Notes under the pieces: generated by a model
Databases searched by the model: none
What the model was told of the DNA's origin: nothing
What the model saw: the letters and a program-made list of their open reading frames with translations, nothing else
NCBI GenBank assembly: GCA_016191015.1
Contig: JACPPM010000200.1
Location: forward strand, 21,954-85,953
Source of the DNA: Acidobacteriota bacterium
Lineage (GTDB): Bacteria > Acidobacteriota > CAIWXX01
Direction of reading: 5' to 3'
Length of the DNA: 64,000 nucleotides
Program-made: the position numbers and the translations under genes
In this document: positions 30,625 to 50,600 of the stretch, piece by piece
Layout: the number at the start of each line of letters is the position of its first letter
Position numbering within the stretch: position 1 is the first letter of the stretch

Positions 30625-30701
30625 GCGCCCGTAGCTCAGTTGGATAGAGCGACTGACTACGAATCAGTAGGTCGGGGGTTCGAGCCCCTCCGGGCGCTCC
30701 A
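30625..30701 (+). tRNA. tRNA-Arg (anticodon ACG)
   Basis: Manual cloverleaf fold. Acceptor stem GCGCCCG/CGGGCGC, D-arm GCTC..GAGC, anticodon stem ACTGA/TCAGT with loop CTACGAA, T-loop TTCGAGC, 3' CCA. Confidence 0.9.
30653..30701 (+). repeat. attL: 49-bp direct repeat, the 3' half of tRNA-Arg
   Basis: ctgactacgaatcagtaggtcgggggttcgagcccctccgggcgctcca is repeated at 54382-54430 with 3 mismatches. Confidence 0.85.
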
Positions 30702-30747
30702 TTCCCCTCAATAACTTAGCGGTCTCAGCGGGACGGCGAGATTTCTC

Positions 30748-30768
30748 GGGTACCACCCGGGTACCACC
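30748..30768 (+). promoter_or_regulatory. Tandem GGGTACCACC arm-type repeat, left end of element
   Basis: gggtaccacc-c-gggtaccacc, 47 bp inside attL. The same tandem sits near attR. A 15-bp palindrome tgacgcactgcgtca follows at 30789-30803. Confidence 0.6.
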
Positions 30769-31308: not shown

Positions 31309-31407
31309 ATGCCGACACAGAGACACAGCGAGTACGTGCTGATCGGGGCACTCCCCGACGACCCCACCGACTACGACCACGAGACCGTGGATTGCTGGGA
31401 CCGATGA
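31309..31407 (+). CDS. Small ORF (32 aa), translationally coupled to the helicase gene
   Basis: GGAGG ribosome-binding site upstream. Its stop overlaps the next gene's start (ATGA). No homology was assessed. Confidence 0.35.
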   Translation: MPTQRHSEYVLIGALPDDPTDYDHETVDCWDR

Positions 31408-32294
31408 CCACGGACCCCCTCGATGGCAGCCTCGCGAGACGTGTCCCGATCTCGCTGCGGGCCCTCGTCGACGCGTCGCTGCCCCCACTCGATTACGTCT
31501 TGCCCGGTATGCTTGCTGGGACCGTTGGCGCACTGATCTCGCCGGGCGGCGTCGGGAAGAGCTGGTGGGCTCTCCAGGCGTCCGTCTATCTCGCCGGCGG
31601 CCCCGACATACTTGGACTGGACGATCCCAGAGCCCGGCAGCTTCGCCCGGGTCCCGTCGTCTATCTCGCAGCCGAAGACCCCGAGCTGCCCTTGCTGTAC
31701 CGTCTCCAGGCCCTCGCGCGGATGATGGACGATGCCACTCTCGACCGCGTGGATCGCAACCTCCACGTCATCCCGCTCCTTGGGGAATCGCTCGATGTGA
31801 TGACGCCACCTTATCGGCAGGCACTCACCCACTATGCGAAGGGCACGCGGCTCATTGTGATCGACACCCTCCGCCGCGCGCACACCCTCGACGAAAATTC
31901 GAGTGGCGACATGGCCCGTCTCCTGGCTGTCCTAGACCAGGTCGCCGTCACAAGCAACTCGGGTGTGCTCTATCTGCACCACACCACGAAGAGCGCGGCC
32001 CTGTCGGGCCAGGGCGACCTGCAGCAGGCCGCACGCGGATCGTCCGTCCTCGTCGACAACATTAGATGGCAGGCATACGTCTCGGGGATGTCCGAGGCAG
32101 AGGCCGACCGGTACGGGATCACCGACGAGGATCGACGGCTCTACGTCCGAGCCGGCGTAGCCAAGATCAACTACGGTGCTCCTCTACCTGAGCGGTGGTA
32201 CCGTCGTGATGAGAGAGGCATCCTGCGGCCAGCCGATCTCCGTCCGATAGCTACTCGGACGAGGAGGACGCGGCAGGAGGCCCTCTCCGTATGA
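31404..32294 (+). CDS. RecA-like AAA_25 ATPase (RepA-helicase-like replication protein)
   Basis: Walker A SPGGVGKSWWAL and Walker B LIVIDTL. Resembles phage/plasmid RepA-like helicases. Confidence 0.7.
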   Translation: MTTDPLDGSLARRVPISLRALVDASLPPLDYVLPGMLAGTVGALISPGGVGKSWWALQASVYLAGGPDILGLDDPRARQLRPGPVVYLAAEDPELPLLYRLQALARMMDDATLDRVDRNLHVIPLLGESLDVMTPPYRQALTHYAKGTRLIVIDTLRRAHTLDENSSGDMARLLAVLDQVAVTSNSGVLYLHHTTKSAALSGQGDLQQAARGSSVLVDNIRWQAYVSGMSEAEADRYGITDEDRRLYVRAGVAKINYGAPLPERWYRRDERGILRPADLRPIATRTRRTRQEALSV

Positions 32295-32298
32295 CGCG

Positions 32299-33423
32299 GT
32301 GCGGCACGGAGACGGGAGGCCAGACATGAGCGGACGCCCCACAACGCAAACCGATCACGCCCGGCACCACCCCGCGCACTGCATGGCGCCAGGGTTGTTT
32401 CGATCACTGAAGGGCCGGAGTCGCACGGACCGCCCCGCCCTCGACATCAGATACACCTGGGGCGACGCTGAGTACCACTTCCTTGGCGTGGCACTTGGGG
32501 TCGAGGACATGCGTGTCTTACAGGCGCTGACCGCGATCGCGGGTGTGCGCGGTCTACAGCTCCCGCACGAGTCGACTCGGCCGCGAGACCCGCACTGGGA
32601 GCGTCTGCGCCGCACACTCGAGGATACGCCTGCCGACGGCAGTCCGCGGGACCACCGCTCCGCTACCGCTGCGGCTCTCGTGACGAGTCGCTATCGTCTA
32701 GCGGTCGAGGCCGGCTGGGAACCGCACTCCGCCCGCCGCATGCACCTCCTGCTGGAGGCGCTGGAGCGCCTTGGCGCGATCTCGCTCTACGTCACGCACG
32801 GCGCCAAGATCACGGGTCCGTACCGGCTGCTCGCCTTTTTGCTTGATCGAGACACCGACAGACTGCTGATCGCTCTCAACCCGCACATCGCCGCCACAAT
32901 CCTCGGCACCATACCCAGCGTGGCCTATGTCTCGCTCGTCGAGGCACGCGCGCTCACAACCGACCCCAGCCGCCTGCTGCACCAGTGGCTATCCGCGTGG
33001 ATCGGACCCGGCCAAGCGCGCCTCATCTCTATCGACGCAATCTGCTCGCATATCTGGCCCGACAGGGCCACGGACCGGAAGCTACGTGATCGGCGTCTCA
33101 AGGCCCGGGCCAGTCTCGACGAGATCGCCGCACTACCGTACTGGCAGGTCACCCCCCTCCGTCCTGACACCTGGCGCATTTCGCGCCGACGGGGCCTCCC
33201 CTCCGTCGGGGTGTACCGACATCGTCGTTGGGGTGTACCGGCATCGACGTTGGGGTGTACCGGCATCGACGCCCCCCCAGATGCCCATCCGCATCACAGC
33301 CGCTACCAGCGCGGGTCCCAGCCACCAGCGTCACTACCGGACGAAACCGCTCTAGTAGATACTAGAGAGTATCTAGGGCGCGAGGCCCTGGATGACCTCG
33401 CGCCCTCTGGGCCATGGAGATGA
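32299..33423 (+). CDS. Putative replication initiator-like protein holding internal iterons
   Basis: No recognizable catalytic motif. Placed between helicase-like and primase-like genes, and its 3' end holds three 22-bp direct repeats. Confidence 0.4.
   Translation: MRHGDGRPDMSGRPTTQTDHARHHPAHCMAPGLFRSLKGRSRTDRPALDIRYTWGDAEYHFLGVALGVEDMRVLQALTAIAGVRGLQLPHESTRPRDPHWERLRRTLEDTPADGSPRDHRSATAAALVTSRYRLAVEAGWEPHSARRMHLLLEALERLGAISLYVTHGAKITGPYRLLAFLLDRDTDRLLIALNPHIAATILGTIPSVAYVSLVEARALTTDPSRLLHQWLSAWIGPGQARLISIDAICSHIWPDRATDRKLRDRRLKARASLDEIAALPYWQVTPLRPDTWRISRRRGLPSVGVYRHRRWGVPASTLGCTGIDAPPDAHPHHSRYQRGSQPPASLPDETALVDTREYLGREALDDLAPSGPWR
33208..33273 (+). repeat. Three tandem 22-bp iteron-like repeats (ggggtgtaccgRcatcgWcgYY)
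   Basis: Units at 33208-33229, 33230-33251 and 33252-33273. The 22-bp period is not a multiple of 3, so this is a DNA-level repeat. Followed by a C7 run. Confidence 0.7.
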
Positions 33424-34220
33424 GGCGTCAGCTCGCGTGGTACGACTCCGTGGGCGTGGACCGGTTCGATATCGCCGTCTCTCTGAGCGCCGACAACAGC
33501 GACGGCATGATCTGGCACCGCGACATCACCGCCGATCGAGTCATCGCGCTCAGACCCTTCGCCGCGGCGCGCAACGCCGCTGGCGCGAACATCTACGTCC
33601 GGCCGGCTCGTGGTCACGACTGGCCGGTTCTCCTGCTCGATGACATCACTCGCTCTTGGGCGGATCGGATCCAGCGCGCCCGCGCCTGCTGCCTGGTCGA
33701 GACCAGTGCCGCCAATCACCAGGCGTGGATCCACTGCGCTCGTTCCCTGGATGAGCCGGAGCGGTGCGCGTGCCAGCGCGCGATCGCAACCAAGATCGGT
33801 GCGGATATCGGCTCGGTCAGTGGGGAGCACCTCGGCCGCCTCGCAGGCTACCGGAACAACAAACCCGGGCGCGGAGGGCACTGGGTACGCATCCATGCGA
33901 TCGGCGCCGGCCCAGCGTGGGATCCGTCGCGCGTCCTCGCCGCTCAGAGTCCCGGCGATCTCCCGCAGCCGACTCCACCCCCAGGGGGGGCTGTGGTTCA
34001 CGGCGGCGGCGGACCGGATGAGAGCGCCGACGAGTGGGGCTATGTATGCGGCCGGCTGACGTGGCTACGCGACTCGCACGCCTCGGACTCACGCATCACG
34101 GCCGAGCTCGCGGCGATGTCGGCGCAGCTGGAGCGACGCGCGGTCGCACGCCACAAAGCAAAGCCGGCACAGTACGCGGCCCGCACCGTCGCCAACGCAC
34201 GCCGGAGGATCGGGGTGTGA
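33414..34220 (+). CDS. Putative primase/replication protein (RepB'-like)
   Basis: Motifs NIYVRPARGHDWPVLLLDDI and QAWIH. Start overlaps the upstream stop. Assignment is tentative. Confidence 0.4.
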   Translation: MEMRRQLAWYDSVGVDRFDIAVSLSADNSDGMIWHRDITADRVIALRPFAAARNAAGANIYVRPARGHDWPVLLLDDITRSWADRIQRARACCLVETSAANHQAWIHCARSLDEPERCACQRAIATKIGADIGSVSGEHLGRLAGYRNNKPGRGGHWVRIHAIGAGPAWDPSRVLAAQSPGDLPQPTPPPGGAVVHGGGGPDESADEWGYVCGRLTWLRDSHASDSRITAELAAMSAQLERRAVARHKAKPAQYAARTVANARRRIGV

Positions 34221-34687: not shown

Positions 34688-35221
34688 GTGTCCACAAACA
34701 AGACAGTGCGGCGTCACGAGGTCCGGGCGCGTCTCACGGACGAGGAGTACGGCGCGGTAGCGCATCTCGCGCAGGAGTCCGGGCTCTCGCAGGCGGATGT
34801 CTTGCGGAGGCTCGTCCTCACGCACTCAAAGCGAAAGTGGGAGCGCGCCGCAGCGGGCGAAATAGAGCAGATGACAACCGATGTTGAGGCGCTGAGCAAG
34901 CGCGTCGAAGCGCTCCACAGCAGGCTCGGCGGTGTGGAGCATGGACTCATGGCAGGCATCGAGACCTTGTCAAAGGACATCGTCATCGCGCGGAACGCCG
35001 CCCTCGAAGTCCAGGCGGCGCGCGGAGGAAGCGGCAAGACTGCCCAAGCAATCGAGGCCGGCATCCAGGATCTCTCCGCAGCGGTCCGGGAGCTGATACG
35101 CATTGACTCCCTGACCGCTCTCCGCGTCCAGGCGGTGGTCGATCTACACCCGAGTGAGACGGTCCGCCAGCGATTCGGGCAGTTGGTCGAGCAGGTCCGC
35201 GCCCAGGGAGGCGAAGTCTGA
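34688..35221 (+). CDS. mobC: MobC-family mobilization (relaxosome accessory) protein
   Basis: N-terminal RHH (VRARLTDEEYGAVAHLAQESGLSQADVLRRLV) followed by a helical C-terminus. GTG start. Confidence 0.65.
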   Translation: MSTNKTVRRHEVRARLTDEEYGAVAHLAQESGLSQADVLRRLVLTHSKRKWERAAAGEIEQMTTDVEALSKRVEALHSRLGGVEHGLMAGIETLSKDIVIARNAALEVQAARGGSGKTAQAIEAGIQDLSAAVRELIRIDSLTALRVQAVVDLHPSETVRQRFGQLVEQVRAQGGEV

Positions 35222-36570
35222 TGCCGATCGTTAAGGCCGGATTTTCGGCCGGCTTGCACGGCCGGGCATCGCCGGCATCCTGGGGTCGCCGCGTAGCATA
35301 TCTCGGCCGCGATCAGGATCAGGCCGCACTGCTCCTGGCGCGAGACGGCACGATCTCCAAGACCGGGGCGCTAGCAGAGCTGGGCGGTAAGCAGGCCGAG
35401 TATCACGAGGCGATCGTCGCGTGGACCCCAAATGAATGCCGCGCACTGGCCGAGCGATTCGGATCAGCCGAAGCGGCGAAGGAGGGGATCGCGAGGAGTA
35501 TCGCGCGCAACCTCGCGGGTGAAGACGGCCATTATGTCGTCGCGATCCACGCCAAACGCCTCAGCACCGGCGAGCAGGCGTGGCATCTCCACGTCGCCAT
35601 CCAGGGACGGGAGCCCGCGCAGTTTCTGGGCGCGAGAGGCCGGGCCCAGCGTGCCGTCGATGCCGCATGGCGCGAATGCGCCCCGAAGCTGCCGATCAAC
35701 GACTGGACCAAGCACGCCCAGTTTGTCTGCATTCGTGCGGAGCTTTGCGCTCTGCAGACCCAGCAGAATAAGCTCTCCGGCGAGCGACGCAACGCACTCC
35801 GGCGAGCGCGCGGGCCGGCAAAGCTCGAGGTCGACAAGGAGTATGCCAGCAAGATGCAGGCGCTTGTCGAGCGTCGCCATGCCCTCGAGCTTGCGGCCGC
35901 CCAAGCCCGGTACGATGCTCGCGGGATCGGCGGGGGCGCGGAGCACCTTGTGGAGATCGAGCGCGCCGACATGCGTCGAGCGCAGGCGCTCTCGGTCATC
36001 GAGCGCAGATCGGAGGCGGTCCGGGCGCGGGGTGGTGCACTGACCCGTACGGATCGCCTGTGGCGCTCCGCACGCGCACAGGACGCCGGCGTCGGCCGAG
36101 GTATCGCGGCCGCCCTACGGGGCGTCCAGCGCGCCCAGCGGGGCATATCTGCCGGGATATCAGGCATGGCCGCGTCGGCGGCGATGTCGGCTCTGCCTGC
36201 GCCCATGCGGGCGATGGTCACGCCATTCCGCCTGGCCGGCCGTCTGATGGCCACCACGACACAGCCGGCACAGCGGGACGTCGAGAGTCCGCTTGCGCCG
36301 CTCCGCGCGCTGCGCCCCGTCATGGCAGGACTACGGTGTGTCGTGCACCTGGGGTCCGCTGTGCTCGGGCCTGCTCTCGCGCCCGCCAAGATTCCAACGG
36401 AGGTCGTCAGCTCCCCACGCAGCGCGATCACCAATGCTGCCGAGCACGCCGCCGGAGCGGCCGTGGGAGTCGTCGGCGGACCCATAGCTGGTGGCGCTGC
36501 CAAGGCGCTGACCGCTGTTCTGCGGGTCCTGAGTTCCGCCCCCCAAGTCATCCAAGAAGTCGAGATATAA
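35221..36570 (+). CDS. Relaxase/mobilization nuclease
   Basis: Follows mobC with a TGATG overlap. His-rich motif HLHVAIQGRE plus an Ala-rich C-terminal tail. Family assignment is tentative. Confidence 0.55.
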   Translation: MPIVKAGFSAGLHGRASPASWGRRVAYLGRDQDQAALLLARDGTISKTGALAELGGKQAEYHEAIVAWTPNECRALAERFGSAEAAKEGIARSIARNLAGEDGHYVVAIHAKRLSTGEQAWHLHVAIQGREPAQFLGARGRAQRAVDAAWRECAPKLPINDWTKHAQFVCIRAELCALQTQQNKLSGERRNALRRARGPAKLEVDKEYASKMQALVERRHALELAAAQARYDARGIGGGAEHLVEIERADMRRAQALSVIERRSEAVRARGGALTRTDRLWRSARAQDAGVGRGIAAALRGVQRAQRGISAGISGMAASAAMSALPAPMRAMVTPFRLAGRLMATTTQPAQRDVESPLAPLRALRPVMAGLRCVVHLGSAVLGPALAPAKIPTEVVSSPRSAITNAAEHAAGAAVGVVGGPIAGGAAKALTAVLRVLSSAPQVIQEVEI

Positions 36571-36592: not shown

Positions 36593-37117
36593 ATGAGCAC
36601 CCATGACCCGAATCCACCCCAAGGGGGGGCTGTGGTTCATCCGCGCGACAACATGTCGCCCCCATCGCCTCAGGCACTGGCTGCAGAAGAGAGGCGTTTG
36701 CGTCGATGGATCGATCAATGGTACCGAGATCGCGCGCCCGGCCGGTGCGCCCGATACGGATCCCAGATGCTGGATCCGGTGTGGCTGGAGATCGAGGCCA
36801 CGGACTGGGGCTGGTGCTCAGTGCCTCTCATCTCCGTGGCGGAGTCATGGCGTAGGCACGGCCTCACGCGGCGTCTCCTCCAGTACCTGGAGTCGTTGCG
36901 AGGGATGCGGACGATCATGGTGAGGAATGTTCACTCTGACCATCTCCGAGAGGCTCTGGCGCGCTACGGTTACACAGATCTCGGCGGCGGCACGCACTGG
37001 CGGCGAGATTTGAGGTCGCCGGCGTCTTGGCTGCGTGGTCTCGCCATGCTCCGTTCTTGGTCGCGCCAGGTGTCATCGCCAGGACTCAGGGCAGGCGATG
37101 TTGCGCGGCGTGACTGA
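36593..37117 (+). CDS. Hypothetical protein (possible GNAT-like fold)
   Basis: AAGGAG ribosome-binding site. Weak motif-A-like RRHGLTRRLLQYL. Confidence 0.35.
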   Translation: MSTHDPNPPQGGAVVHPRDNMSPPSPQALAAEERRLRRWIDQWYRDRAPGRCARYGSQMLDPVWLEIEATDWGWCSVPLISVAESWRRHGLTRRLLQYLESLRGMRTIMVRNVHSDHLREALARYGYTDLGGGTHWRRDLRSPASWLRGLAMLRSWSRQVSSPGLRAGDVARRD

Positions 37118-37182
37118 CCGCGGCCGGCGGCAGAGACGTGGGTAGTCCGGTCCGAACAACATTGCAGCAAGGAGGAGCACAG

Positions 37183-37788
37183 GTGGCGTCAGAAGAGATG
37201 AATCAATCAGCGGTTCGCTGTCCGAAATGCAACGAAGGAGAGATCGTCGAGCGCGACAAATTCTGGGGGTGCTCCCGATGGGGCCGAGACGCGGATGGTG
37301 CCGTGACGGGGTGCGACTTCAAAGTGTGGAAGGAAGTCGCACATGGAAAGATCACGGAAAAGGACCTGAGGGAACTGGTTGCGGGCGAAATAACGCGCAA
37401 GATCAAGATGCGCAACAAAGCTGGCAAGGATTTCGAGGCGCCGTTGCACCTGAACCAGGAGACGTGGCGGGTCGATTTCCTGTTTGGGGAGGATGTGAGC
37501 ACGACCAACGGCGGCCCGACGCCTGGGGCCGCGATCGGCGCTTGCCCTCAGTGCCATGAGGGGAGCGTGATCGCCTTCGGGGCCGGCTGGCAGTGCAGCC
37601 AATGCAGCTGGAAGCTGTGGCGGCGCAAGTGCGATGCGGAGCTCAGCGAGGATATGGCAAAGACCCTGATCTCCGGGGGCGTGACGCCGGTGCTCGCGAT
37701 GACGAGTCGCGAAGGAAAGAAATTCAAGGCGGCGATGTCCCTTAAAGAAGACGGATCGGTGGAGTTGCGATTCGAGGACGATCACTAG
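37183..37788 (+). CDS. Stand-alone tandem topoisomerase-type C4 zinc-ribbon protein (YrdD-like)
   Basis: Two CxxC..CxxC ribbons (CPKCNEGEIV...WGCSRW and CPQCHEGSVI...WQCSQCSW). AGGAGGA ribosome-binding site before the GTG at 37183. Confidence 0.55.
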   Translation: MASEEMNQSAVRCPKCNEGEIVERDKFWGCSRWGRDADGAVTGCDFKVWKEVAHGKITEKDLRELVAGEITRKIKMRNKAGKDFEAPLHLNQETWRVDFLFGEDVSTTNGGPTPGAAIGACPQCHEGSVIAFGAGWQCSQCSWKLWRRKCDAELSEDMAKTLISGGVTPVLAMTSREGKKFKAAMSLKEDGSVELRFEDDH

Positions 37789-37815: not shown

Positions 37816-38019
37816 ATGCTAATCCGCATCGAAGTCAATACAGCCGCCGAGGCAGACGAGGTCCTTGACGCGTTGCGTCATCGCTTCTGGGGCCGCATCC
37901 GGGAAGTCGCCCACACACCAGTGTGCCGAGATGTGTATCTGATGCCTCAAAGTGTCGAGGTGCCAGGCCGGGAGGGACGCACATGCAGAGCGGACAGGCA
38001 GGACGAATCGCAATCATGA
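37816..38019 (+). CDS. Small hypothetical protein
   Basis: 67 aa. Its stop overlaps the metzincin start (ATGA). Confidence 0.3.
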   Translation: MLIRIEVNTAAEADEVLDALRHRFWGRIREVAHTPVCRDVYLMPQSVEVPGREGRTCRADRQDESQS

Positions 38020-40646
38020 CTACGCGCGGAAGGATGGCGAGTAGGAAGGGATTACCCTGGAGGGTACTCATGGGATGCGTATTGGTGTTGTTGGCGCTAT
38101 TGGGTGCTAGTTGCGTCGAGGGTGTGGGGGCTGAACTCTTCCCCTCGAGTGCGGCGTCCGTGATTGGCGAGCCGCTTCGGGTATCCCGCGTGGAGGTCGT
38201 CACCGTCAATCCCGATGTACTGACGGAACAAGGGCCGACGCGCATCGGCCTGCGGATTTTCGGCGTGGAGCGCGTCGCCGAGCGCACCAAGATGGAACGG
38301 CGATCACGCACCAATTGGAGTTGGTTCGGGCACCTCGAGGGGGATAGCAGCAGTTCGGTGATCCTGGTCAACTGGGACGGGGATCTGTACGGCACGATCT
38401 CTGGATCGGCCGGCCGCTTCGCGGTCCTGCCGGGGTGGGAGGCCGGAACTTGCCGGTTGCTCGAGCCGGTGGTATCCCCCGGCCCGCAGTGCGCTGCCAT
38501 CGAGTTCGGGGACATCCTCCCCGCGGAATACACGGCGATCGGCCCGGAGCCGATCACGCCGGCCGCTCCGGATGTGGTGACGGTCAACGTCCTAGTGATG
38601 TATACACAAGGCGCCGAAGACCGCGCCACCCAACTCGGTGTCACGATCCCAGCTGTGATTCAGGTGCAGGTCGACTCTACGAACCAGGCTTATGCTCAGA
38701 GCCAGGTTAGCCACCGGATTGCTCACACATTGGCGAAGGTGAGCTACGCCGACAGCGGATCGCTCTACACAGATCTGACGCGCATGGTGGTTTATGGCGA
38801 TGGCTACTTCGACGACCTGCTCGTACAGAAGCAGGCGGTGGCAGCGGACATCCCTGTGTTGGTCGTGGGATTGTCGAGTGACGCCGGCGGCCTCGGCTCG
38901 CTCATGACGGTGGTGAGCGAGGCCTTCGCGCAGGACGCCGCAGCAGTCCTCAACACTGACAACGTGGCATTTGCCTGGGCATTTTCATTCGCGCATGAGA
39001 TCGGCCACGTGATGGGAGTGCGGCACAACTGGGAGGACGATCCACAGACCACCCCATACATCTACGCGCACGGCTACGGCAAACAAGAAGCCGATTTCCG
39101 GGATATCATGAGTTATCCCAACGCATGTCCATCGGGATGCGTTGCGAGGAACTACTTCAGTAACCCGAATCTCAATTTCAACGGCTATCCGATGGGGATC
39201 GCGGAGGGAGCGGGCCCTCAGCCAGCGGATGCCGTGCGAGCACTGAACAATACAGCCCCCACGGTCGCAACGTTCCGGAACTATCTTGCCACCTGCACCT
39301 ACGCTCTCAACGCTTACTCGCGCAGCGTGAGCTCTGCGGCGGGCAGCGGGTCATATGGTGTAACGACCACCGATGGGTGCCGGTGGTCAGTCAACACCAG
39401 CGACTCCTGGATCACGATCACATCGGCGCCATCTGCCTATGGCACCAGCGTAGTAACCTATACGTACGGGGAGCACGGCAGCCAGTCGAGCCGCGCCGGC
39501 ACGATTACCGTGACCCCGGTTGATGGTAGCAGCGGCACCATCAGCTATATCCTCACTCAGTCCCCGGCCGGTGCATGCACCGTGTCAACCAATCCGACAG
39601 GCAGCGTGTTCTTCGCGACAGCTGGTGGCATCGGCAGCTTCGCGATCAACGTGAACAGCCAAGGCTGCGCCTGGACCGTAAGCAACGGCCTGCCGTGGGT
39701 CACGATCACGAGCGCCACCAGCGGGACGGGGAACGCCACGGTGACGTACACCGTGGCGCCGAACGCGAACTCAATGCGGAGCGGATACATCCAGGTGAAC
39801 GCCGGCGGCTTTCAGGCGCAGTACGCTGTAGCGCAGCAGGGCAGGAGCTGCCCTGTTGTGCTCACACCGGGATCGGCCAGCTATGCGTCCGGTGGTGGAA
39901 GCGGATCATTCGGCATCACCGAAACGAGCGGGTGTGGCTGGACCGCGACGAGTTACGATTTGTGGCTCACGATCACTGGCGGAGCGTCCGGCACCGTGAG
40001 CTACTCCGTGGCCTCCACGAGCTCCACCACCGGACGCACCGGCTCGATCGTGGTTGATACGGGGGCGGGGAATCAGACTTTCATCGCCATGCAAAATGGG
40101 GTGGGCCAGACATGCGCTTACGCCGTGACTCCGTTCTCAGAGACATGGGATGACGACGGGGGATCGACATCGGTGTCGATCACCACAACCACCGGCTGCG
40201 CATGGAACTCCGTGAGTAACGATGCCTGGATCTCGTTCTCGGCTGGCTCCGGGAGCGGCAGCGGCTCGGTCACGATGAGCGTGGATGCCAACCTGGCGCC
40301 GGCTGCGCGCACGGGGTCGGTGGCGATCGCGGGCACCACGTATGCGATCGCGCAGGAAGCCTACGACAGCGGCGGGGGCGGCGGTGGCACGACCCCTGTG
40401 ATCAACACGATCAGCAGCAAGAAGGCGAAGCCGAAGACGAGCGCAAAGCTCGTCGGCACGAACTTCTCTGCAACCAAGACGCAGAACACGGTTTACTTCG
40501 GCAAATACACAGCCACCATCAAGAGCGCCGGCACGAGCCAGCTCAAGGTCACGATCCCATCGCAGTGCAAGTCCGGGAAGACGTATCAGGTCTCCGTCAA
40601 TACCAATGACGTCCGCAGCAACACGATCCCCTTTCAGGTCAAGTAG
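38016..40646 (+). CDS. Secreted metzincin zinc protease with four BACON-like repeats and a C-terminal IPT/TIG domain
   Basis: Signal peptide. Metzincin motif HEIGHVMGVRH (HExxHxxGxxH). Repeated GC[AGR]W..W[IL]T[IF] modules. C-terminal TIG-like beta domain. Confidence 0.75.
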   Translation: MTTRGRMASRKGLPWRVLMGCVLVLLALLGASCVEGVGAELFPSSAASVIGEPLRVSRVEVVTVNPDVLTEQGPTRIGLRIFGVERVAERTKMERRSRTNWSWFGHLEGDSSSSVILVNWDGDLYGTISGSAGRFAVLPGWEAGTCRLLEPVVSPGPQCAAIEFGDILPAEYTAIGPEPITPAAPDVVTVNVLVMYTQGAEDRATQLGVTIPAVIQVQVDSTNQAYAQSQVSHRIAHTLAKVSYADSGSLYTDLTRMVVYGDGYFDDLLVQKQAVAADIPVLVVGLSSDAGGLGSLMTVVSEAFAQDAAAVLNTDNVAFAWAFSFAHEIGHVMGVRHNWEDDPQTTPYIYAHGYGKQEADFRDIMSYPNACPSGCVARNYFSNPNLNFNGYPMGIAEGAGPQPADAVRALNNTAPTVATFRNYLATCTYALNAYSRSVSSAAGSGSYGVTTTDGCRWSVNTSDSWITITSAPSAYGTSVVTYTYGEHGSQSSRAGTITVTPVDGSSGTISYILTQSPAGACTVSTNPTGSVFFATAGGIGSFAINVNSQGCAWTVSNGLPWVTITSATSGTGNATVTYTVAPNANSMRSGYIQVNAGGFQAQYAVAQQGRSCPVVLTPGSASYASGGGSGSFGITETSGCGWTATSYDLWLTITGGASGTVSYSVASTSSTTGRTGSIVVDTGAGNQTFIAMQNGVGQTCAYAVTPFSETWDDDGGSTSVSITTTTGCAWNSVSNDAWISFSAGSGSGSGSVTMSVDANLAPAARTGSVAIAGTTYAIAQEAYDSGGGGGGTTPVINTISSKKAKPKTSAKLVGTNFSATKTQNTVYFGKYTATIKSAGTSQLKVTIPSQCKSGKTYQVSVNTNDVRSNTIPFQVK

Positions 40647-40655
40647 GAGCAAGTG

Positions 40656-43508
40656 ATGAAACGATTGGTTTTCGCATTCTGTGTTTTCGGGCTAGGGATT
40701 TCGGCGCACAGGGCAGGCGCGCAAAGCGGTACGATCGCGATCACGGGTGTGGTGCCGGATGCGAATGGCCATACCGCGACCGTGAACTACAGTTGGAGCC
40801 AGACCGGGCCGGGGTCCAACAAACTCATGACGGGCGACCTCTACGTGCGCATCCTACAGGGTGTGTCACTAGCGCCTGACATCTACAATGATGGGTTCGG
40901 CACCATGTGTACCCAAGCCGCGTCCATGACGTGCGCTGGCACAACCGCGTACTTGGTGGGCTACGGCCGCTTCGGGGTGTGTGTGAACAGCGCCAGCAGC
41001 ACAGGTTCCTTCACCATGGACGGCCTCCTCCCGGGCGTTGGCTACACAGTACAGTTGATCGGGTACCTCGAATGGACAGCAGATTGTGCGAGCCCTGTGC
41101 CCGTGGCTACGCTCTGCATCACGAGTGGTGTCAGCGCCTTGACGATGGGCGCTGGTCAGCCTCCTGTCGTCACAACGCTCGCTGCTTCCAGCGTCACTGG
41201 AACCACCGCAACGCTGAACGGAACGGTCAACCCGAACAACCTCAGCACAAGCCACTACTTCGAATGGGGCACAACTGTTGCGTATGGTAATACCACGTCT
41301 GTCGGACTCCTGTCCCCAGGCCCTCTCAACGGGGCCTGTACCACTCTAGCCACCGCCGGAGGATGGATAGCGAACGCGGTATCAGCGGGGCTGACCGGCT
41401 TGACGGGCGGGCAGACGTACCATTTCCGGGTCGTGGCCACCAACGCACAGGGCACGACCTACGGCGGCGACCAGCAGTTTGCGGCCGCCCAAGTTCCTTC
41501 TCTCACAACCAACCCTGCAACGGGCGTTGGCAGCACCACAGCCACCCTTAACGGTGTCGTCACGACCAACGGCTTAACCGCGAGCTGGTGGTACGAGTAC
41601 GGCACCGGCAGCGGTGTCTATCCCAACAGCACACCAGGCGGGACCGTGCCGGGCGGCACGCCCAGCGCGGCAGTCAGCGTGACTCTCAGTGGGCTACTGC
41701 CCAACAGCACATACTATTTCCGTCTCGCTGGTGCGAATGCGAACGGGACGGGATACGGGATCGAGCGCAGCTACACGACTGGCAGCGCCGCTCCTCCTAC
41801 GGCTATCACGGGTGCAGCATCGGGGGTGAGTACCGTGTCGGCGATACTGACAGGGACCGTCAATCCCGCAGGATCCGCAACCATGTATTGGTTCGAGTGG
41901 GGGACATCGGTCGGCTACGGCAACACGACCCCATCGCAATCCGCTGGCAATGGCACGAGCAACGCGTACGGCAGCTATCCGCTGAGCGGACTCACGAGCG
42001 GCCAAACCTATCACTATCGGGTCGTCGCGCAGAACGCATCAGGTACCGGGTACGGCTCGGATGTCGCCTTCACGACAGGCGCGACTAATCCCCCGGCCGT
42101 GACGACCGGCTCCGCATCGAGTGTGGGCACGACGTCCGCAACCCTTGGAGCCACCATCAATCCGAATAGCTCCGCCACGAGCTGGTACGTCGAGTATGGT
42201 CCGACCACCAGCTACGGGCAGACCGCCTACGGCGGCACAGTCCCGCCAGGCTCCTCGAACGTCTCAGTCAACGTTACCATAACAGGACTGACCCCAGGCA
42301 CTCTCTACCACTGGAGGCCCGTCGGCACGAACGGCATTGGCGGACGCAGCTTCGCGCCGATGGCGTATGGCACGACGTACGGCGCCGACTCGACGTTCAG
42401 CACGACGAGCGTGAGCTATCCCGGGCCTACGGTGACGACGGAAGCAGCGTCGAACGTGGGTTACACAGGCGTGGTTTGCAACGCGACCGTGAATTTCCAA
42501 GGCGACAGTGGCACCTACTGGTTCGAGCTGAGCACATCACCGGGCGGTCCATACACGATCACCTCATCCACCGGCTCCGGTGCGGGAGCGACGGACGTGT
42601 ACGTAAGCCGCGCTGTCTCCACGCTCTCCCAGGGGACGACTTACTACGCTCGCGCCGGTGCACAGAATTCGGGAGGAACTACGTACGGTGCGGATGTCTC
42701 CTTCGTCACAGACACTGCCGGCGTGGGCGTACCCATTGCGAACACGCTCGACGCCAGCAACATCACGACTACGGGTGCTGTGCTCAACGGCACGTACCAG
42801 CCGAACGGGGCGTCGTCGAGCCAGGTGTGGTTCGAATGGGGCACCAGCGCATCGAGTCTCTCAAACGCCACGAGCATCCAAAACGGAGTTGGTGGATCCA
42901 CCGAAACCAGCTACAGCCGGAGCCTCACCACTCTCACCGCGGGAGGCACCTACTACTTCAGGCTGGCGTGCAGCACGCCTACGGGAGGCACTGCCTACGG
43001 CGCCACGCTCACTTTCACCACCAGTACCACGCCGGTCACGTATCTCGAATTCAGCAACTTCAAGTGCAAGTGGAAGGATGTAGCCAACTCCAATCTGCTT
43101 GGTGGTAGCGGAAAGCGTGGTCTCGCTCGCAAGAGCCGGGCCTCGCTCACGTTCACCGGCACCGGCATCGATCTCTACTCGATGCTCGACAAGACACTCG
43201 GCAAGATGAAAATCACGATCGACGGTGCCGCGCTTCGGCATCCCGTCACAATTAGACGGCTCACCGCCGACCGTGGGCTCGTCACGGACATCATCAATCC
43301 CACGAAGCTCGGTCGGAAATCCGGGAAGGGATCTCCGCTCTCCACCACGGTGGATCTTTACACACCGGGAGCGACACAGTTCCAAGAGATTCTCTACTCG
43401 ATCTCCGGGCTATCCAGCGGACAGCACACACTGCGAGTCGACGCGGTCGCGCCCAAGGGGACGAAGCGCTACCACATTTTCGTGGACGCGGTGCGAGTGC
43501 GTGAGTGA
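40656..43508 (+). CDS. Secreted protein with about nine FN3-like repeats and a C-terminal beta-sandwich domain
   Basis: Signal peptide (MKRLVFAFCVFGLGISAHRAGAQ). Repeated ~90-aa modules (T.TL.GTVNPN...YWFEWGT...YG.TT...GQTYH[FY]RVVA.N..G). AGGAGC ribosome-binding site. Confidence 0.75.
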   Translation: MKRLVFAFCVFGLGISAHRAGAQSGTIAITGVVPDANGHTATVNYSWSQTGPGSNKLMTGDLYVRILQGVSLAPDIYNDGFGTMCTQAASMTCAGTTAYLVGYGRFGVCVNSASSTGSFTMDGLLPGVGYTVQLIGYLEWTADCASPVPVATLCITSGVSALTMGAGQPPVVTTLAASSVTGTTATLNGTVNPNNLSTSHYFEWGTTVAYGNTTSVGLLSPGPLNGACTTLATAGGWIANAVSAGLTGLTGGQTYHFRVVATNAQGTTYGGDQQFAAAQVPSLTTNPATGVGSTTATLNGVVTTNGLTASWWYEYGTGSGVYPNSTPGGTVPGGTPSAAVSVTLSGLLPNSTYYFRLAGANANGTGYGIERSYTTGSAAPPTAITGAASGVSTVSAILTGTVNPAGSATMYWFEWGTSVGYGNTTPSQSAGNGTSNAYGSYPLSGLTSGQTYHYRVVAQNASGTGYGSDVAFTTGATNPPAVTTGSASSVGTTSATLGATINPNSSATSWYVEYGPTTSYGQTAYGGTVPPGSSNVSVNVTITGLTPGTLYHWRPVGTNGIGGRSFAPMAYGTTYGADSTFSTTSVSYPGPTVTTEAASNVGYTGVVCNATVNFQGDSGTYWFELSTSPGGPYTITSSTGSGAGATDVYVSRAVSTLSQGTTYYARAGAQNSGGTTYGADVSFVTDTAGVGVPIANTLDASNITTTGAVLNGTYQPNGASSSQVWFEWGTSASSLSNATSIQNGVGGSTETSYSRSLTTLTAGGTYYFRLACSTPTGGTAYGATLTFTTSTTPVTYLEFSNFKCKWKDVANSNLLGGSGKRGLARKSRASLTFTGTGIDLYSMLDKTLGKMKITIDGAALRHPVTIRRLTADRGLVTDIINPTKLGRKSGKGSPLSTTVDLYTPGATQFQEILYSISGLSSGQHTLRVDAVAPKGTKRYHIFVDAVRVRE

Positions 43509-43598: not shown

Positions 43599-44060
43599 AT
43601 GAAGAATGAGTTGGACGACCAGATTGCGCGGACCGCGGAGCGGCTGTCGCGGCGTGGGGCCTGCCGCCGGCGACGCATGCGGCACCAGAAGAAGTCCATG
43701 CGCGCTGACCGCTGGGCGATTCGAGCTCGCGAAATTGTCCCGCCAGAGCATGGGCGCATGGCGTGGGCATCCGATGCGGCGCGTGAGATCCTGCAGGACC
43801 TCTTGCGTGTGGGTAAGGTGCCAACGCAGATCTTCGGCGTCTTGGAGCGTGAGTTGGGTGTGTGCAAGAGGCGCGGAGCAAATTCGGCATTATTGCTGAA
43901 TGAGCCGCTCGCGGTAACGATCCTCGAGGCGGCTGCGCAGCGCGTAAATGGACGGGATCGCCTCGCGCGTGTCGTTGCCGTCCTGTTCCTCTCACTCGAG
44001 GAGTGCCTGCTGGCGACGGGGACGCGGAAGGTAGTCTCTGGCGCAGCGGTGGAGCGCTAG
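43599..44060 (+). CDS. Hypothetical protein
   Basis: 153 aa, basic N-terminus, no recognizable motif. Confidence 0.35.
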   Translation: MKNELDDQIARTAERLSRRGACRRRRMRHQKKSMRADRWAIRAREIVPPEHGRMAWASDAAREILQDLLRVGKVPTQIFGVLERELGVCKRRGANSALLLNEPLAVTILEAAAQRVNGRDRLARVVAVLFLSLEECLLATGTRKVVSGAAVER

Positions 44061-44061
44061 G

Positions 44062-45876
44062 ATGAGTGCTGGCGTTATGCTGGAGCAGGTGTGGCCATGG
44101 ATCGCGGCGTGGCCCTTCCGCCTCGTGGCTGCCGTCGTCGCGCGCAAGCCCGAGGTCCTCGCAGTGGTGCCGCACCTGCCAGCCGTTGCGCTGGCGTGCT
44201 GGGGACTCTGGTTGTGGGCTCGTCTCACGCGCAGGCAGCTACTCCATACGTGGCCGCGCCTCTCGAATTTCCTGGGCTCGGGATGGCTCGCGCCTATCGC
44301 GACATGGTTCACTGCGCTCACTCTGATGCTCATTCGCGGCACCTGGCTCGTGCGAGTCCTGCCAGGCCACGAGGTCGGTGCAGTATCGCACGCCGGCGCC
44401 CTCATGCTCTATCCGGCCGCGGCGTTCTGCGCATGGCGGATTCTGCCGCCGCTGGCGCGCAAGGGCAACCTCGGATCGGCCGTGTGGGCCGCGGTGAGGA
44501 ATGTTCGGGTGCGGTCCGGCGCTCCCTTCCTTCTGCCGGTGCGCATACCTCTTCGGCCGTGCAGAAGGCCCCGAGCGTGGGACATGGGACCCGCTGTGCT
44601 GGCACCTGACCGCGGCACCGTCTGCCGGCACACGCTGGTCCTTGGAGGGTCCGGAGCCGGAAAGGGTGCGTCGGTGCTCGGTCACATCATACAGAGCACG
44701 CACCTGCCGCTCATCTATCAGGACGTCAAGGCGGAGTGCCCGCTCCTTGTTGACCGGTGGCAGCGCCGCGGCAAGCCGCCGATTGTGTGGGGCGCGTCGC
44801 GTCCGGGCGGCTGGCCGTCGCTCAGCTGGAATCCTCTCCAGGAGGCATACGACGACCCAGATTTCGAGGATGCGTGCGGCGGGCTGGCAGGTGCGCTGCT
44901 ACCAGTGGTCAAGGGCGAGAACGCATGGGTCACCGACACGGCCCGTCTGCTCCTCACGCACATTTTTTCGCAACGCGTGTACAGAGCCCTCAGCGAGATT
45001 CGCGACGAGCTGAAGGGGCACGGAATCGCGGCGGTTCTCACGAGAGTCGGTTCGGCGGCTGGGCTCGACGAGCAGCTCGCCGGAAAGAACGCGAAAGAGT
45101 ACGCGTCGAACGCCCTCCAGACGACCCTTGATCACTTTGGGGTCGGGTGGGCGCGCGCCGCCACGACTCTGCACAACTTCAGTCTGTCAGATGTCCTGAC
45201 CACCGACTGCTACGTGCTATCGAATGAGTCCGATGAGAAGCGGCGTCTTCCCCTGCAGGTCTTCTGGCGGATGTTGTTCCGCAGAATGCTCAAGGCGTCC
45301 GAGCTGGGAAATATGCTATTGCTGGATGAGGGGCTCGCCGCAGGCTACATCCCGGGCTTGGCAGATGCGCTGAATACGATCCGCAGCAAGGGTGGTGCGA
45401 TCGTCTTCGCGATTCAGAATAGCGGGGGACTCAAGGCCGTCTACCGGGACGAGGCGGAGGCCGTGTCGGAGGCTTTCGCCTCAAAGATTGTCCTGCTCAG
45501 CGGGCTTAATCCGGAGGACCTCCAAGCACTCACGAAGCAGATGGGCGAGTTCACAGTGGTCCGCGGACGGCCGCTGCTCCCAGTCAAAGGTGAGCAGATT
45601 GCATCCTTGCTGCCGATCGAGTACGCGAGCAAGCTCGCGCTCCTCCCGAAGCAGTGGTGGGGCGTCATTCGAATCCCGGGTGTGGTGCGGACGGGCCGGC
45701 CCATCCTGGCGCGGATGATGGCGAGTAGTTTCGCCGTCCAGGAGCCGCACCCACACCTGGCGGAGGCGATGCAGCGGGCCTATCCCGCCCGACCATTCGC
45801 AGGCACAGCTGTGAATATCGTCCCGGAGGCTACTCCGGCCGAGCCAGACTCCACACCGCAGGCATTCGGACTATAG
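44062..45876 (+). CDS. Type IV secretion coupling protein (VirD4/TraG/TrwB-like)
   Basis: N-terminal TM helices. Walker A LVLGGSGAGKGASVL and Walker B MLLLDEG. Confidence 0.7.
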   Translation: MSAGVMLEQVWPWIAAWPFRLVAAVVARKPEVLAVVPHLPAVALACWGLWLWARLTRRQLLHTWPRLSNFLGSGWLAPIATWFTALTLMLIRGTWLVRVLPGHEVGAVSHAGALMLYPAAAFCAWRILPPLARKGNLGSAVWAAVRNVRVRSGAPFLLPVRIPLRPCRRPRAWDMGPAVLAPDRGTVCRHTLVLGGSGAGKGASVLGHIIQSTHLPLIYQDVKAECPLLVDRWQRRGKPPIVWGASRPGGWPSLSWNPLQEAYDDPDFEDACGGLAGALLPVVKGENAWVTDTARLLLTHIFSQRVYRALSEIRDELKGHGIAAVLTRVGSAAGLDEQLAGKNAKEYASNALQTTLDHFGVGWARAATTLHNFSLSDVLTTDCYVLSNESDEKRRLPLQVFWRMLFRRMLKASELGNMLLLDEGLAAGYIPGLADALNTIRSKGGAIVFAIQNSGGLKAVYRDEAEAVSEAFASKIVLLSGLNPEDLQALTKQMGEFTVVRGRPLLPVKGEQIASLLPIEYASKLALLPKQWWGVIRIPGVVRTGRPILARMMASSFAVQEPHPHLAEAMQRAYPARPFAGTAVNIVPEATPAEPDSTPQAFGL

Positions 45877-45886
45877 AGGAGGACAG

Positions 45887-46849
45887 ATGAGACAGAGAAT
45901 CGAAACACTGATCGTGCAATTGCGCCTTCGGGCAGGTTGGCGCGCACCGCTCGTTGTCGCTTGCGTATTGGCCGCTTGGATGTTTCTGCTGCCAACCACG
46001 GCTTATGCCCAGGAGACTATTGGCAGCAAGTTTATGGAGGACACGATGCGCAAAGCGCTCGTGCCCGTCGTCATGGCGTTCATGACCAAGGTCAGTAACT
46101 TCGTGACCCCATTGCTGGCGGGGTTGGCTACAATCTTCGTAATCTGGACCGCGATCAAGAACTTCCTCGCAGACAGGCCCTTCCAAGAGACCTTCGCAGA
46201 GATTCTGATGACACTGCTCATCGTCACGGCCCTCACGAACACGGACAACTACAGGTGGCTCTTCTGGGACATGATGTATGGTGGGCTCTACACGGAGCTT
46301 GTTGTCCCTGCCGGCGAAGGGGATACGGGCTTCCCGGCGGCTGTGCAAGAGCTGGCTCACCAGCAAGCGGAACGCTCCGCGAAGTGGAACCTCAGCACCG
46401 GCATGACGATCATCCAGCGCATCGGCGAATCCATCAACACACTCGAGACAGGAGGCGTTGCTTGGCTCATGCAAATCGGCGCACTCTTTGTCGAGCCCCT
46501 CATGACGTCCGCCACCATCTTTGCGATAATGTCGATCGCTTTCTTCGGGGCGATCGGCCAGATATTTCTCTCCATGTGGCTACTCGACTTCACGAAGGAC
46601 TATACGAAGAAGTGGTTCGGCTGCTATATGGGCGCGATATTCTCGTTGGTAGCAATCAGCTTCTTCGCGCCATTTCTGAGCGGGTGGTGGAGTGATGTTG
46701 TGGCCGAAGCGGTACAACTCGAGAACGCGAACAAGGGCATCACGGAAAAAATGCTTACTCCTGGCCTCATGAAGCAGTTCGTGTGGAGTTTCTTCGGCAT
46801 CATGGCAGCCCTCAAGGCGCCCAGTTTGGGGAAGGAGCTGTTCCGGTGA
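45887..46849 (+). CDS. Polytopic membrane protein (VirB6/TrbL-like candidate)
   Basis: GAGGAGG ribosome-binding site. At least five hydrophobic helices. This region is visibly AT-richer than the rest. Confidence 0.45.
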   Translation: MRQRIETLIVQLRLRAGWRAPLVVACVLAAWMFLLPTTAYAQETIGSKFMEDTMRKALVPVVMAFMTKVSNFVTPLLAGLATIFVIWTAIKNFLADRPFQETFAEILMTLLIVTALTNTDNYRWLFWDMMYGGLYTELVVPAGEGDTGFPAAVQELAHQQAERSAKWNLSTGMTIIQRIGESINTLETGGVAWLMQIGALFVEPLMTSATIFAIMSIAFFGAIGQIFLSMWLLDFTKDYTKKWFGCYMGAIFSLVAISFFAPFLSGWWSDVVAEAVQLENANKGITEKMLTPGLMKQFVWSFFGIMAALKAPSLGKELFR

Positions 46850-47796: not shown

Positions 47797-48093
47797 TCGC
47801 CGCCATGCCCCGGTGCGAAGACGGAGTGCCGGCAGTCACGACGAGTCCTTCGCCGTCGCTCGCCTGGGCCCGCTCTCACGCCCCGCGTCTCGGGCACGCT
47901 TCGCTCTCCGGCTCCGTTGCAGACGGGTCCCCTCCCGCCTTCGGCGGGAACCCTCCCCATCTTCACTCCGCCTCCGGCCTGAGAAGCGGGGACGCGGGCC
48001 TTTAGGGCGAGGCGACGGCGAAGGACTCATCGTGAGACAGGCGGCGGCAGACAATACACAGTAATGCGTGTATTGCCGCCAAAGCCGCACGAG

Positions 48094-48120
48094 GCGCCGG
48101 CTCAGGATCTATCGTGAGAC
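48094..48120 (+). repeat. Element-internal repeat family B, partial copy (…caggatctatcgtgagac)
   Basis: Matches the 3' part of the copies at 48967-49034 and 50277-50335. Confidence 0.55.
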
Positions 48121-48135
48121 AACCGTAAGAACTCC

Positions 48136-48966: not shown

Positions 48967-49034
48967 CCCCTATCCCCCGCCCGGGGTAACGCGGAACGGA
49001 GGCTCGGGCGCCGGCGCAGGATCTATGGTGAGAC
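48967..49034 (+). repeat. Element-internal repeat family B, full copy 1
   Basis: cccctatcccccgcccggggtaacgcggaacggaggctcgggcgccggcgcaggatctatggtgagac. Confidence 0.6.
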
Positions 49035-49063
49035 GGGGGAACGGAACAGCCGGCGAATGAAGT

Positions 49064-50276: not shown

Positions 50277-50335
50277 CCTATCCCCCGAAGGGGGTAACGC
50301 GGACGGAGGCTCCGGCTCAGGATCTATCGTGAGAC
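50277..50335 (+). repeat. Element-internal repeat family B, full copy 2
   Basis: cctatcccccgaagggggtaacgcggacggaggctccggctcaggatctatcgtgagac. Confidence 0.6.
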
Positions 50336-50600
50336 ACGATCGATCGATCGACATAGCCCCGGCCGCGGGATCGGAAAGGAGTTGACTTTTGACCCCACAA
50401 GTGCCAACCTTCGCCTATGGGTACCCGTAGGGCAGACAGGACCGCGTTAGATCTGCGCGAAGCACTCGGCGCGTCGCAAGAGACATCGGATTTCTCCACC
50501 GCCTCGGGCCGGAAACGAATCAAGGCGAGGTCGTTGTGGAGTTCGATGGGCGGTTTTACCGCATTACGAAATTCGATTCAGCGTGAATTAGGAGGATCTC

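Follow-up and report, generated by a model that had tools for sequence, protein, structure and literature searches.

The stretch of DNA analysed here (the window) comprises 64,000 nucleotides from an Acidobacteriota bacterium (NCBI GenBank assembly GCA_016191015.1, contig JACPPM010000200.1, positions 21,954 to 85,953 of the forward strand; coordinates below count from its first nucleotide). It carries two long open reading frames (ORFs) on the same strand, 37923/38016-40646 and 40653/40656-43508, referred to as gene 1 and gene 2, which are enclosed in a 23.7-kb island at a tRNA-Arg gene. Their Pfam domain content bears out a first-pass annotation, made from the bare sequence, that had proposed an exported protease accompanied by a binding array: the evidence supports a metzincin-type protease with binding modules for gene 1 and a non-catalytic binding array for gene 2, with export predicted for both. 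Orthologues of both genes, full-length and again adjacent, are present in a second genome. The two genes and their domains, with residue ranges in amino acids (aa), are as follows.

38016-40646, + strand: gene 1, predicted 876-aa secreted multidomain metzincin (NCBI HYX75_15140)
38148-38468, + strand: gene 1 N-terminal all-beta domain, prodomain-like (aa ~45-151), followed by a low-confidence linker (aa ~155-186)
38574-39290, + strand: gene 1 catalytic domain (aa ~187-425), adamalysin/M12B-like, predicted fold closest to M72 CpaA
38994-39026, + strand: zinc-binding motif HEIGHVMGVRH (aa 327-337)
39108-39110, + strand: Met-turn Met365 (DIMSYP), an invariant column (M326 of alignment A2)
39288-40361, + strand: four tandem BACON modules (aa ~425-782; Pfam BACON, BACON_2)
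40395-40637, + strand: C-terminal TIG/IPT domain (aa 794-874, after a poly-Gly linker; Pfam TIG, E 2.5e-5)
40656-43508, + strand: gene 2, predicted 950-aa secreted FN3-array protein (NCBI HYX75_15145)
40722-41162, + strand: gene 2 N-terminal Cys-rich domain, degenerate FN3-like (aa 23-169)
41163-43028, + strand: six FN3 repeats of the PhoD_N/Pur_ac_phosph_N type (aa 170-791; from Pfam and repeat alignment)
43029-43505, + strand: gene 2 C-terminal beta jelly-roll, CE2_N-like, a putative glycan-binding module (aa 792-950)

Architecture of the two proteins

The start of gene 1 is ambiguous, with ATG codons at 38016, 38034 and 38070; the last, used by NCBI (858-aa form), has the best GGAGG Shine-Dalgarno spacing of these candidates. 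The ORF has a third-position GC content of ~0.76, a bias as in real genes of this 62% GC window. The gap to gene 2, previously given as 7 nt, measures 9 nt if gene 2 starts at ATG 40656 or 6 nt if it starts at GTG 40653, and the gene 1 stop codon overlaps the GGAG that precedes gene 2. No terminator-like site was found between the two genes or before the downstream coupling-protein gene. The gene string of the window is also present on two independent Logan contigs, and an exact look-up of gene 1 in the contig index, in its 876-aa and 858-aa forms, returned no record. Each protein begins with a hydrophobic N-terminal signal sequence, in agreement with the signal peptides noted earlier, and no PEP-CTERM or other sorting signal is visible at either C-terminus.

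Taken together, sequence profiles and a structure model identify gene 1 as a zymogen-like adamalysin/M72-like metzincin, predicted to be active, with a tail of four BACON modules and a TIG domain. The complete metzincin motif HEIGHVMGVRH and the downstream NWEDDPQT picked out at first reading are indeed present and span aa 327-345; Pfam Reprolysin_4, Reprolysin_3 and Reprolysin_5 match at aa ~189-387 above gathering cutoffs. In alignment A2, which holds gene 1 and 18 relatives (19 homologues), the H, E, H, G and H of the zinc motif and the Met-turn methionine are invariant, as are W103 and G105 of the gene 1 N-terminal domain (N-domain). The sole NCBIfam match is Mep72 (NF052434), with aa 189-421 on model positions 1-232 of 573 (E 1.2e-20); the equivalog score of 73.6 bits is far under the 645-bit cutoff, and both carbohydrate-binding module (CBM) domains of the model are unmatched. 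Several gene 1 homologues carry the JGI label ‘peptidyl-Asp metalloendopeptidase’. A lipoprotein reading of the N-terminus (LLGASC) was rejected: position -3 is Gly, and the Cys is missing from the orthologue in the second genome.

An AlphaFold2 model of gene 1 aa 40-430 (predicted local distance difference test score (pLDDT) 82.6, predicted template modelling score 0.86) consists of the all-beta N-domain, the low-confidence linker and a catalytic domain with an adamalysin-type alpha/beta fold. Its top Foldseek match in the PDB is 6o38 (CpaA; E 1e-9), followed by ADAM17 with prodomain, Bacteroides fragilis MPII and profragilysin-3 (zymogen forms), and further down by ADAM8, ADAMTS-5 and snake-venom metalloproteinases, with 74 PDB matches at E <= 1e-3. 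At the level of sequence, the zinc-site region is the only tie of the gene 1 family to adamalysins and CpaA: the family profile matches the CpaA sequence in that region alone (E 0.008), and a phmmer search of the PDB with the whole gene 1 protein gave no match.

The four repeated modules of ~90 aa described earlier are recovered as BACON domains (PF13004; E 5e-19, 68.5 bits against a cutoff of 25, in four stretches), although their GC[RAG]W signature, at aa 454, 550, 639 and 727, lies ~28 residues inside each module rather than at its start. Each module has two Cys residues (427/455, 521/551, 612/640 and 700/728), and such pairing throughout fits an extracytoplasmic protein. The TIG-like domain suspected at the C-terminus matches Pfam TIG (PF01833) at aa 794-874 with 24.6 bits against a cutoff of 20.9, and is kept in the gene 1 orthologue of the second genome.

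Gene 2 matches Pfam fn3 (PF00041; 59.4 bits), Pur_ac_phosph_N (48.9) and PhoD_N (46.0), each score exceeding its cutoff (E 4e-16 to 8e-12). With repeats delimited at recurring P-x-[VI]-x-T boundaries, the array resolves into six clear FN3 repeats at aa 170-791, sharing 30-50% pairwise identity, and one degenerate N-domain, fewer than the nine or so that had been counted by eye. The N-domain aligns weakly with the repeats (17-27% identity), and its conservation extends only to protein P0080 and the gene 2 orthologue of the second genome. Ser and Thr make up 26% of the protein, with inter-repeat linkers rich in Pro-Ser/Thr. A cleavable signal peptide is predicted, without a transmembrane segment or membrane anchor, and the protein has no catalytic domain, including esterase and phosphatase domains. 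A PDB sequence search with the whole protein returned only FN3 matches to titin and myomesin.

That gene 2 ends in a distinct domain was already seen at first reading; its last ~160 aa have no Pfam match, and a direct match to the CE2_N (PF17996) hidden Markov model was not obtained. A profile of this C-terminal domain (C-domain) matched 585 of 1.84 billion representative proteins, two of them over its full length (P0080 and P0086). Because its remote profile matches carry Pfam CE2_N (10 of the 10 scanned), we call the domain CE2_N-like: a jelly-roll that is putatively glycan-binding and not itself a Pfam member.

The island that carries the pair

The first-pass annotation had placed the genes on a mobile element, and the tRNA-Arg gene, a repeat of its 3' half and an integrase at one end of the intervening DNA confirm this. 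The main features of the island outside the pair are the following.

30652-30702, + strand: attL, 3' half of tRNA-Arg(ACG) (tRNA gene at 30625-30701)
31392-34220, + strand: IncQ-type replicon with RepA-like helicase (AAA_25), RepC and RepB primase
34688-36570, + strand: NikA-like ribbon-helix-helix (RHH) protein and 449-aa putative relaxase (relaxase ORF at 35221-36570)
43599-46849, + strand: downstream transfer-side genes, namely orf153, coupling protein (44062-45876) and TrbL/VirB6-like membrane protein (45887-46849)
53047-54204, - strand: tyrosine integrase (Arm-DNA-bind_3 + Phage_integrase)
54381-54431, + strand: attR, 51-nt direct repeat of the tRNA 3' half (94% identity, exact 25-nt core)

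From left to right, the island encodes an HTH_17 protein, the RepA-like helicase, RepC, the RepB primase, the NikA-like protein and the 449-aa ORF; then a small ORF, a topoisomerase Zn-ribbon protein, gene 1, gene 2, orf153 and the coupling protein; and finally the TrbL/VirB6-like protein, ParA, BrnA, DUF433 and the tyrosine integrase. The replication and mobilization genes, gene 1, gene 2 and the coupling protein all lie on one strand. As in tRNA-integrated islands generally, a direct repeat of a tRNA 3' end is combined with a tyrosine integrase at one end. Beyond the exact 25-nt core, the two att copies differ by a compensatory change in the T-stem (GGGGG/CCCCT versus GGGAG/CCTCT), as expected if one copy is element-derived and the other chromosomal; either version should be able to form a proper tRNA 3' half. 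A search for a close relative whose tRNA-Arg site is unoccupied found none.

When the larger called ORFs of the element were scanned with Pfam and NCBIfam, with several small ORFs outside the scan, no VirB4 ATPase was detected; the coupling protein and the TrbL/VirB6-like protein were the only type IV secretion parts detected. The most fitting description is hence an integrative, probably mobilizable element with an IncQ-type replicon, which probably relies on a helper and, once excised, may replicate like a plasmid. It resembles IncQ-type integrative mobilizable elements in its RepA-like helicase, RepC, RepB primase, iterons, NikA-like protein, tyrosine integrase and integration at a tRNA gene, and differs from them in its orphan putative relaxase and its own coupling protein and VirB6-like protein. 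The first reading had located the pair between a relaxase gene and a coupling-protein gene. The coupling protein stands, at 44062-45876 on the + strand; the identity of the upstream relaxase is less secure, since the 449-aa ORF has no Pfam, NCBIfam or plasmid match, and among 5.8 billion proteins it has one relative (84-90% identity, from the related element described below). We infer a relaxase from its position after the NikA-like gene and from an N-terminal Tyr (RRVAYLGRD) and a WHLHV motif, seen by eye, which are candidates for motifs I and III of a relaxase; its C-terminal half is of low complexity and rich in Ala, Gly and Arg.

Several sequence repeats accompany these genes. Three tandem 22-nt repeats (CGTYGGGGTGTACCGRCATCGW) at 33204-33269, within the 3' end of the repC ORF and just before repB, are probably oriV iterons. 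Four intergenic copies of a 31-nt sequence, GAGGCGCCGGCTCAGGATCTATCGTGAGACA (81-100% identity; 48009-48039, 48091-48121, 49005-49035 and 50306-50336), surround the ParA gene and may be centromere or operator sites. A 32-nt sequence with the palindrome CCCC(C/A)AGGGGGG occurs at two gene ends, 33969-34000 and 36608-36639 (94% identity), with looser copies near 49664, 51494 and 52234; it may act as a terminator or REP-like element. Immediately before gene 1, a stand-alone 216-aa protein (37138-37788) consists only of topoisomerase I/III C-terminal Zn-ribbon repeats (Toprim_Crpt, E 1e-25). Past attR (54432-55760), 54581-54864 and 55601-55754 repeat 51070-51345 and 51986-52139 at 82-83% identity, duplicating the BrnA-antitoxin region of the element (51070-52139). 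Inside the element, 54237-54265 repeats 30739-30767. These duplications look like the remnant of a second related element formerly inserted in tandem, and no third att copy was seen. In the chromosomal flank right of the island (58862-61546), a 554-aa alpha-amylase family enzyme adjoins a protein with a glucodextranase C-terminal SLH-like binding module.

Related loci and the history of the pair

Relatives of the element are almost absent from plasmid, viral, genome and metagenome collections. The putative relaxase as anchor gave no match in the genome_contigs, viral_contigs or plasmids collections, nor did the coupling protein in viral contigs, and the only related element found is L003, a 7.3-kb Logan contig. 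Its identity to the window is mosaic: on the replication and mobilization side, RepB (71%), NikA (86%) and the relaxase (84-90%) are close, with orf174 at 37%, whereas the gene 2 orthologue (54%, N- and C-domains included), orf153 (54%) and the coupling protein (41%) are more divergent. This 71-90% versus 41-54% pattern points to modular recombination or to very unequal evolutionary rates. The L003 gene 2 orthologue sits where gene 2 does in the window, with the putative relaxase on one side and orf153 and the coupling protein on the other, and the Zn-ribbon gene (37138-37788 in the window) is missing. The idea that the two genes travel together with related elements fails on this sole example, where gene 2 has an orthologue but gene 1 has none; pairing is thus not obligatory.

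The second genome with both genes is that of Acidobacteriota MAG131 (a metagenome-assembled genome (MAG); contig JBFMAF010000022.1, locus L004). Its gene 2 orthologue (1080 aa) and gene 1 orthologue (860 aa) share 40% and 41% identity, respectively, with the window proteins from end to end, the latter with the same Reprolysin, BACON and TIG architecture. The order is reversed relative to the window, with the gene 2 orthologue first and the gene 1 orthologue 47 nt later. The similar divergence of both genes fits joint inheritance, and the observations support gene 1 and gene 2 as a genuine pair. Among the three gene 2 proteins, those of the window and L003 group together at 54% identity, with that of L004 at ~40% to each.

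In L004 the orthologous pair and an upstream 970-aa protein with two SH3_3 and five PKD domains form a three-gene row (6016-18100) flanked by three putative toxin-antitoxin pairs (RHH; UPF0175 with DUF3368; PhdYeFM), which suggests a variable island without recognizable mobility genes. Neither a tRNA nor any gene for replication, transfer or integration lies within 10 kb of the pair, which is thus not specific to the element.

Searches for further pairs were made from both genes. With the catalytic domain of gene 1, metagenome contigs gave eight loci, none with a gene 2 homologue nearby; these relatives reach at most 36% identity (28-36%) and are covered over the N-domain and catalytic domain only. 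The C-domain of gene 2 as anchor gave L004 alone in genome_contigs and nothing in metagenome or viral contigs. A word-indexed protein search with gene 1 returned only relatives that match in part (BACON or protease alone) and failed to recover the L004 orthologue; the latter came to light by chance, next to the gene 2 orthologue. That search is consequently unusable for counting gene 1 orthologues, and the rarity of gene 1 is not firmly established.

The most economical history is that the pair predates its capture, was taken up by the lineage of the element, and later lost gene 1 in L003, with the gene order permuted at some point. The alternative, with gene 2 as the old resident and gene 1 as a later arrival, requires the same two orthologue groups to have become adjacent twice independently.

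Interpretation and rival explanations

On balance, and with moderate confidence, we favour a portable two-gene extracellular module, a protease plus a binding array, carried as accessory cargo on what is probably a mobilizable 23.7-kb island at tRNA-Arg, and acting on a protein or glycoprotein in a polymeric matrix. For this module we infer secretion, enzyme activity, a substrate and cooperation of the two proteins along the following lines. Gene 1 would be exported through its signal peptide as a zymogen-like metzincin endopeptidase, which its four disulfide-stapled BACON modules and TIG domain would tether or target. Gene 2 would be exported separately as a rod in which six regular FN3 domains follow a degenerate one and whose CE2_N-like end probably binds a glycan or polymer surface. 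Outside the cell, the gene 2 array would hold a polymeric or glycoprotein matrix or surface while gene 1 cleaves its protein or glycoprotein, in the service of nutrient acquisition or matrix remodelling. The roles proposed at first reading, namely predation, biofilm remodelling or surface degradation, are speculative.

Domain arrangements elsewhere are consistent with such a division of labour. FN3 repeats often occur within the same chain in relatives of the gene 1 protease, as seen in Pfam annotation and in FN3 positions in the family profile. In P0060, an N-domain and catalytic domain (28% identity to gene 1, E 1e-32) are followed by three FN3 repeats that align with those of gene 2 (E 5e-9), and in P0207 an S8 protease is joined to fn3, CE2_N and PhoD_N modules. 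The modules of gene 2 thus appear to be typical accessory parts of secreted proteases, here in a separate protein. P0182, an M12 protease fused to a PhoD_N array, was rejected as a Rosetta-stone fusion, its protease domain having no detectable relationship to that of gene 1.

Several points weigh against an extracellular cargo module. The pair is seen in two genomes only, gene 1 is absent from the one related element, and distant proteases combining M12B and BACON domains have no FN3-array neighbour. The fusion evidence is weak, because FN3 and BACON are promiscuous modules. As for binding, the model of the gene 2 C-domain is of low confidence (pLDDT 57), and glycan binding by BACON is itself only putative (PMC3267712).

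The closest structural relative of the protease, CpaA of Acinetobacter (6O38), is an M72 metzincin O-glycoprotease secreted by a type II secretion system (T2SS); its catalytic domain is combined with four Ig-like tandem repeats, and the chaperone gene cpaB lies next to its own (PMC7542363). CpaA is like gene 1 in its HExxHxxGxxH motif and Met-turn, in four tandem beta-sandwich repeats thought to bind glycans, and in a functionally linked adjacent gene. By contrast, its catalytic domain is C-terminal (matched residues 369-513 of 578), whereas that of gene 1 precedes the repeats; gene 1 is further set apart by its BACON repeats, prodomain-like N-domain and TIG domain, and by a neighbour that is a 950-aa FN3 array instead of the membrane-anchored chaperone CpaB. 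Mep72 of Pseudomonas aeruginosa is a T2SS-secreted metzincin as well; tandem carbohydrate-binding domains come after the metzincin part, and its gene shares a transcript with that of a partner, BamI, which is predicted to be partly natively unfolded (PMC4334185). Mep72 has two CBMs where gene 1 has BACON and TIG accessory domains, and BamI is unlike an FN3 array. Profragilysin-3 and MPII share with gene 1 the two-domain layout of a prodomain-like beta domain and a catalytic domain, yet enzymes of the fragilysin/MPII type have only 11-18% identity to it in structural alignments and lack the tail of four BACON modules and TIG, and gene 1 shows no sign of a fragilysin-type activation mechanism.

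BACON modules accompany mucin-type metallopeptidases, one proposal being that they offer glycoprotein substrates to the active site (PMC3267712). The M60-like BT4244 is, like gene 1, an extracellular zinc metallopeptidase with BACON; it has the gluzincin M60 fold and is a lipoprotein of gut Bacteroides, whereas gene 1 is a metzincin from an environmental Acidobacteria MAG. For gene 2, the nearest comparison is with large secreted ‘beta strand repeat-containing’ proteins that carry CE2_N and PhoD_N-type FN3 modules, from which it differs in having a C-domain below Pfam detection.

Among other explanations, gene 2 might not be cargo but a long-standing part of the transfer side, either a surface adhesin for donor-recipient contact or a modifier of a helper mating apparatus, with gene 1 as a later insertion. 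Replacement mating-pair proteins are known from mobilizable islands such as SGI1, and large adhesins from Gram-positive conjugative plasmids. That the L003 gene 2 orthologue sits in the same slot, with gene 1 and the Zn-ribbon gene absent, fits this explanation, as does the probable dependence on a helper of an element without detected VirB4; the identity levels between the window and L003 likewise group gene 2 with the transfer-side genes, at 54% with orf153 (54%) and the coupling protein (41%) against 71-90% for RepB, NikA and the relaxase. However, a single related element is available, PhoD_N-type FN3 arrays are very common in non-mobile contexts (3003 matches), and in L004 the gene 2 orthologue stands with a gene 1 orthologue and a PKD-repeat protein and no transfer genes within 10 kb. 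A joint capture, after which L003 lost gene 1, also accounts more simply for the adjacency in two genomes, and we regard a transfer-side origin as unlikely, if still worth serious attention. Quite unlikely, in our estimate, is that gene 2 is a surface adhesin matured or released by gene 1 cleavage, functionally analogous to LapA/LapG. The tight linkage in two genomes and the Ser/Thr content and Pro-Ser/Thr-rich linkers of gene 2 would suit it, given that CpaA cuts O-glycoproteins at P-S/T* sites (PMC7542363). Yet gene 2 occurs without gene 1 in L003, neither a LapD-type regulator nor a retention module is present, and nothing indicates glycosylation or surface anchoring of gene 2, while the four BACON modules and TIG domain of gene 1 itself point to an external polymeric target rather than one dedicated substrate. 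A version joining both ideas, to which we give a small chance at best, makes the FN3/CE2_N-like array the mating or contact adhesin of an undescribed acidobacterial element family, processed or released by the metzincin; such a family would unite an IncQ-type replicon with an orphan relaxase and with both a coupling protein and a VirB6-like protein, VirB4 being undetected, and the pair would then be a conjugation-linked adhesin and protease in a diderm phylum with essentially unstudied transfer machinery.

Both CpaA and Mep72 depend on a partner encoded next to them, be it for secretion or to avert toxicity (PMC7542363; PMC4334185), which raises the question of whether gene 2 could be a dedicated chaperone or inhibitor of the protease, like CpaB for CpaA or BamI for Mep72. 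We consider this very improbable: such partners are membrane-anchored (CpaB) or partly natively unfolded (BamI) and neither is described as an FN3 repeat array, whereas the gene 2 product, an FN3 array of 950 aa, lacks a membrane anchor and has a cleavable signal peptide of its own; moreover, gene 1 already has a prodomain-like N-domain, and related proteases lack such a neighbour. The notion that these are ordinary chromosomal genes only seeming to lie in a mobile element draws on a GC content (62%) and codon-position GC like those of the flanking chromosome and on the L004 pair, which lies outside any recognizable element, but is contradicted by the att sites, with their 51-nt tRNA-Arg repeat and an integrase at one end, by the placement of the genes on one strand between replication/mobilization genes and the coupling protein, and by the same gene string on independent Logan contigs; it is the explanation we come closest to dismissing.

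Every domain in the extracellular module that we favour belongs to a known family, and a secreted metzincin with glycan-binding repeats, an FN3 array and carriage on a tRNA island are all familiar. New are the combination of N-domain, M72-like catalytic domain, four BACON modules and TIG (in two genomes, L004 holding the one full-length orthologue found), its linkage to an FN3/CE2_N-like array, and the place of the pair inside the mobilization and transfer gene string of an unusual acidobacterial element. There is no hint of a mechanism out of the ordinary; the building blocks are widespread extracellular modules, and the function is likely to be conventional and poses no challenge to current understanding. 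Since CpaA, the nearest relative in structure, serves as an O-glycoprotease tool in glycoproteomics, the gene 1 enzyme could have a useful specificity, and the carrier, with its integrase, IncQ-type replicon and orphan putative relaxase, is an oddity of interest to specialists in mobile genetic elements. If our reading is right, mobilizable islands would move a ready-made extracellular degradation kit between Acidobacteriota, which would bear on how these abundant soil and sediment bacteria gain polymer-degrading capacity.

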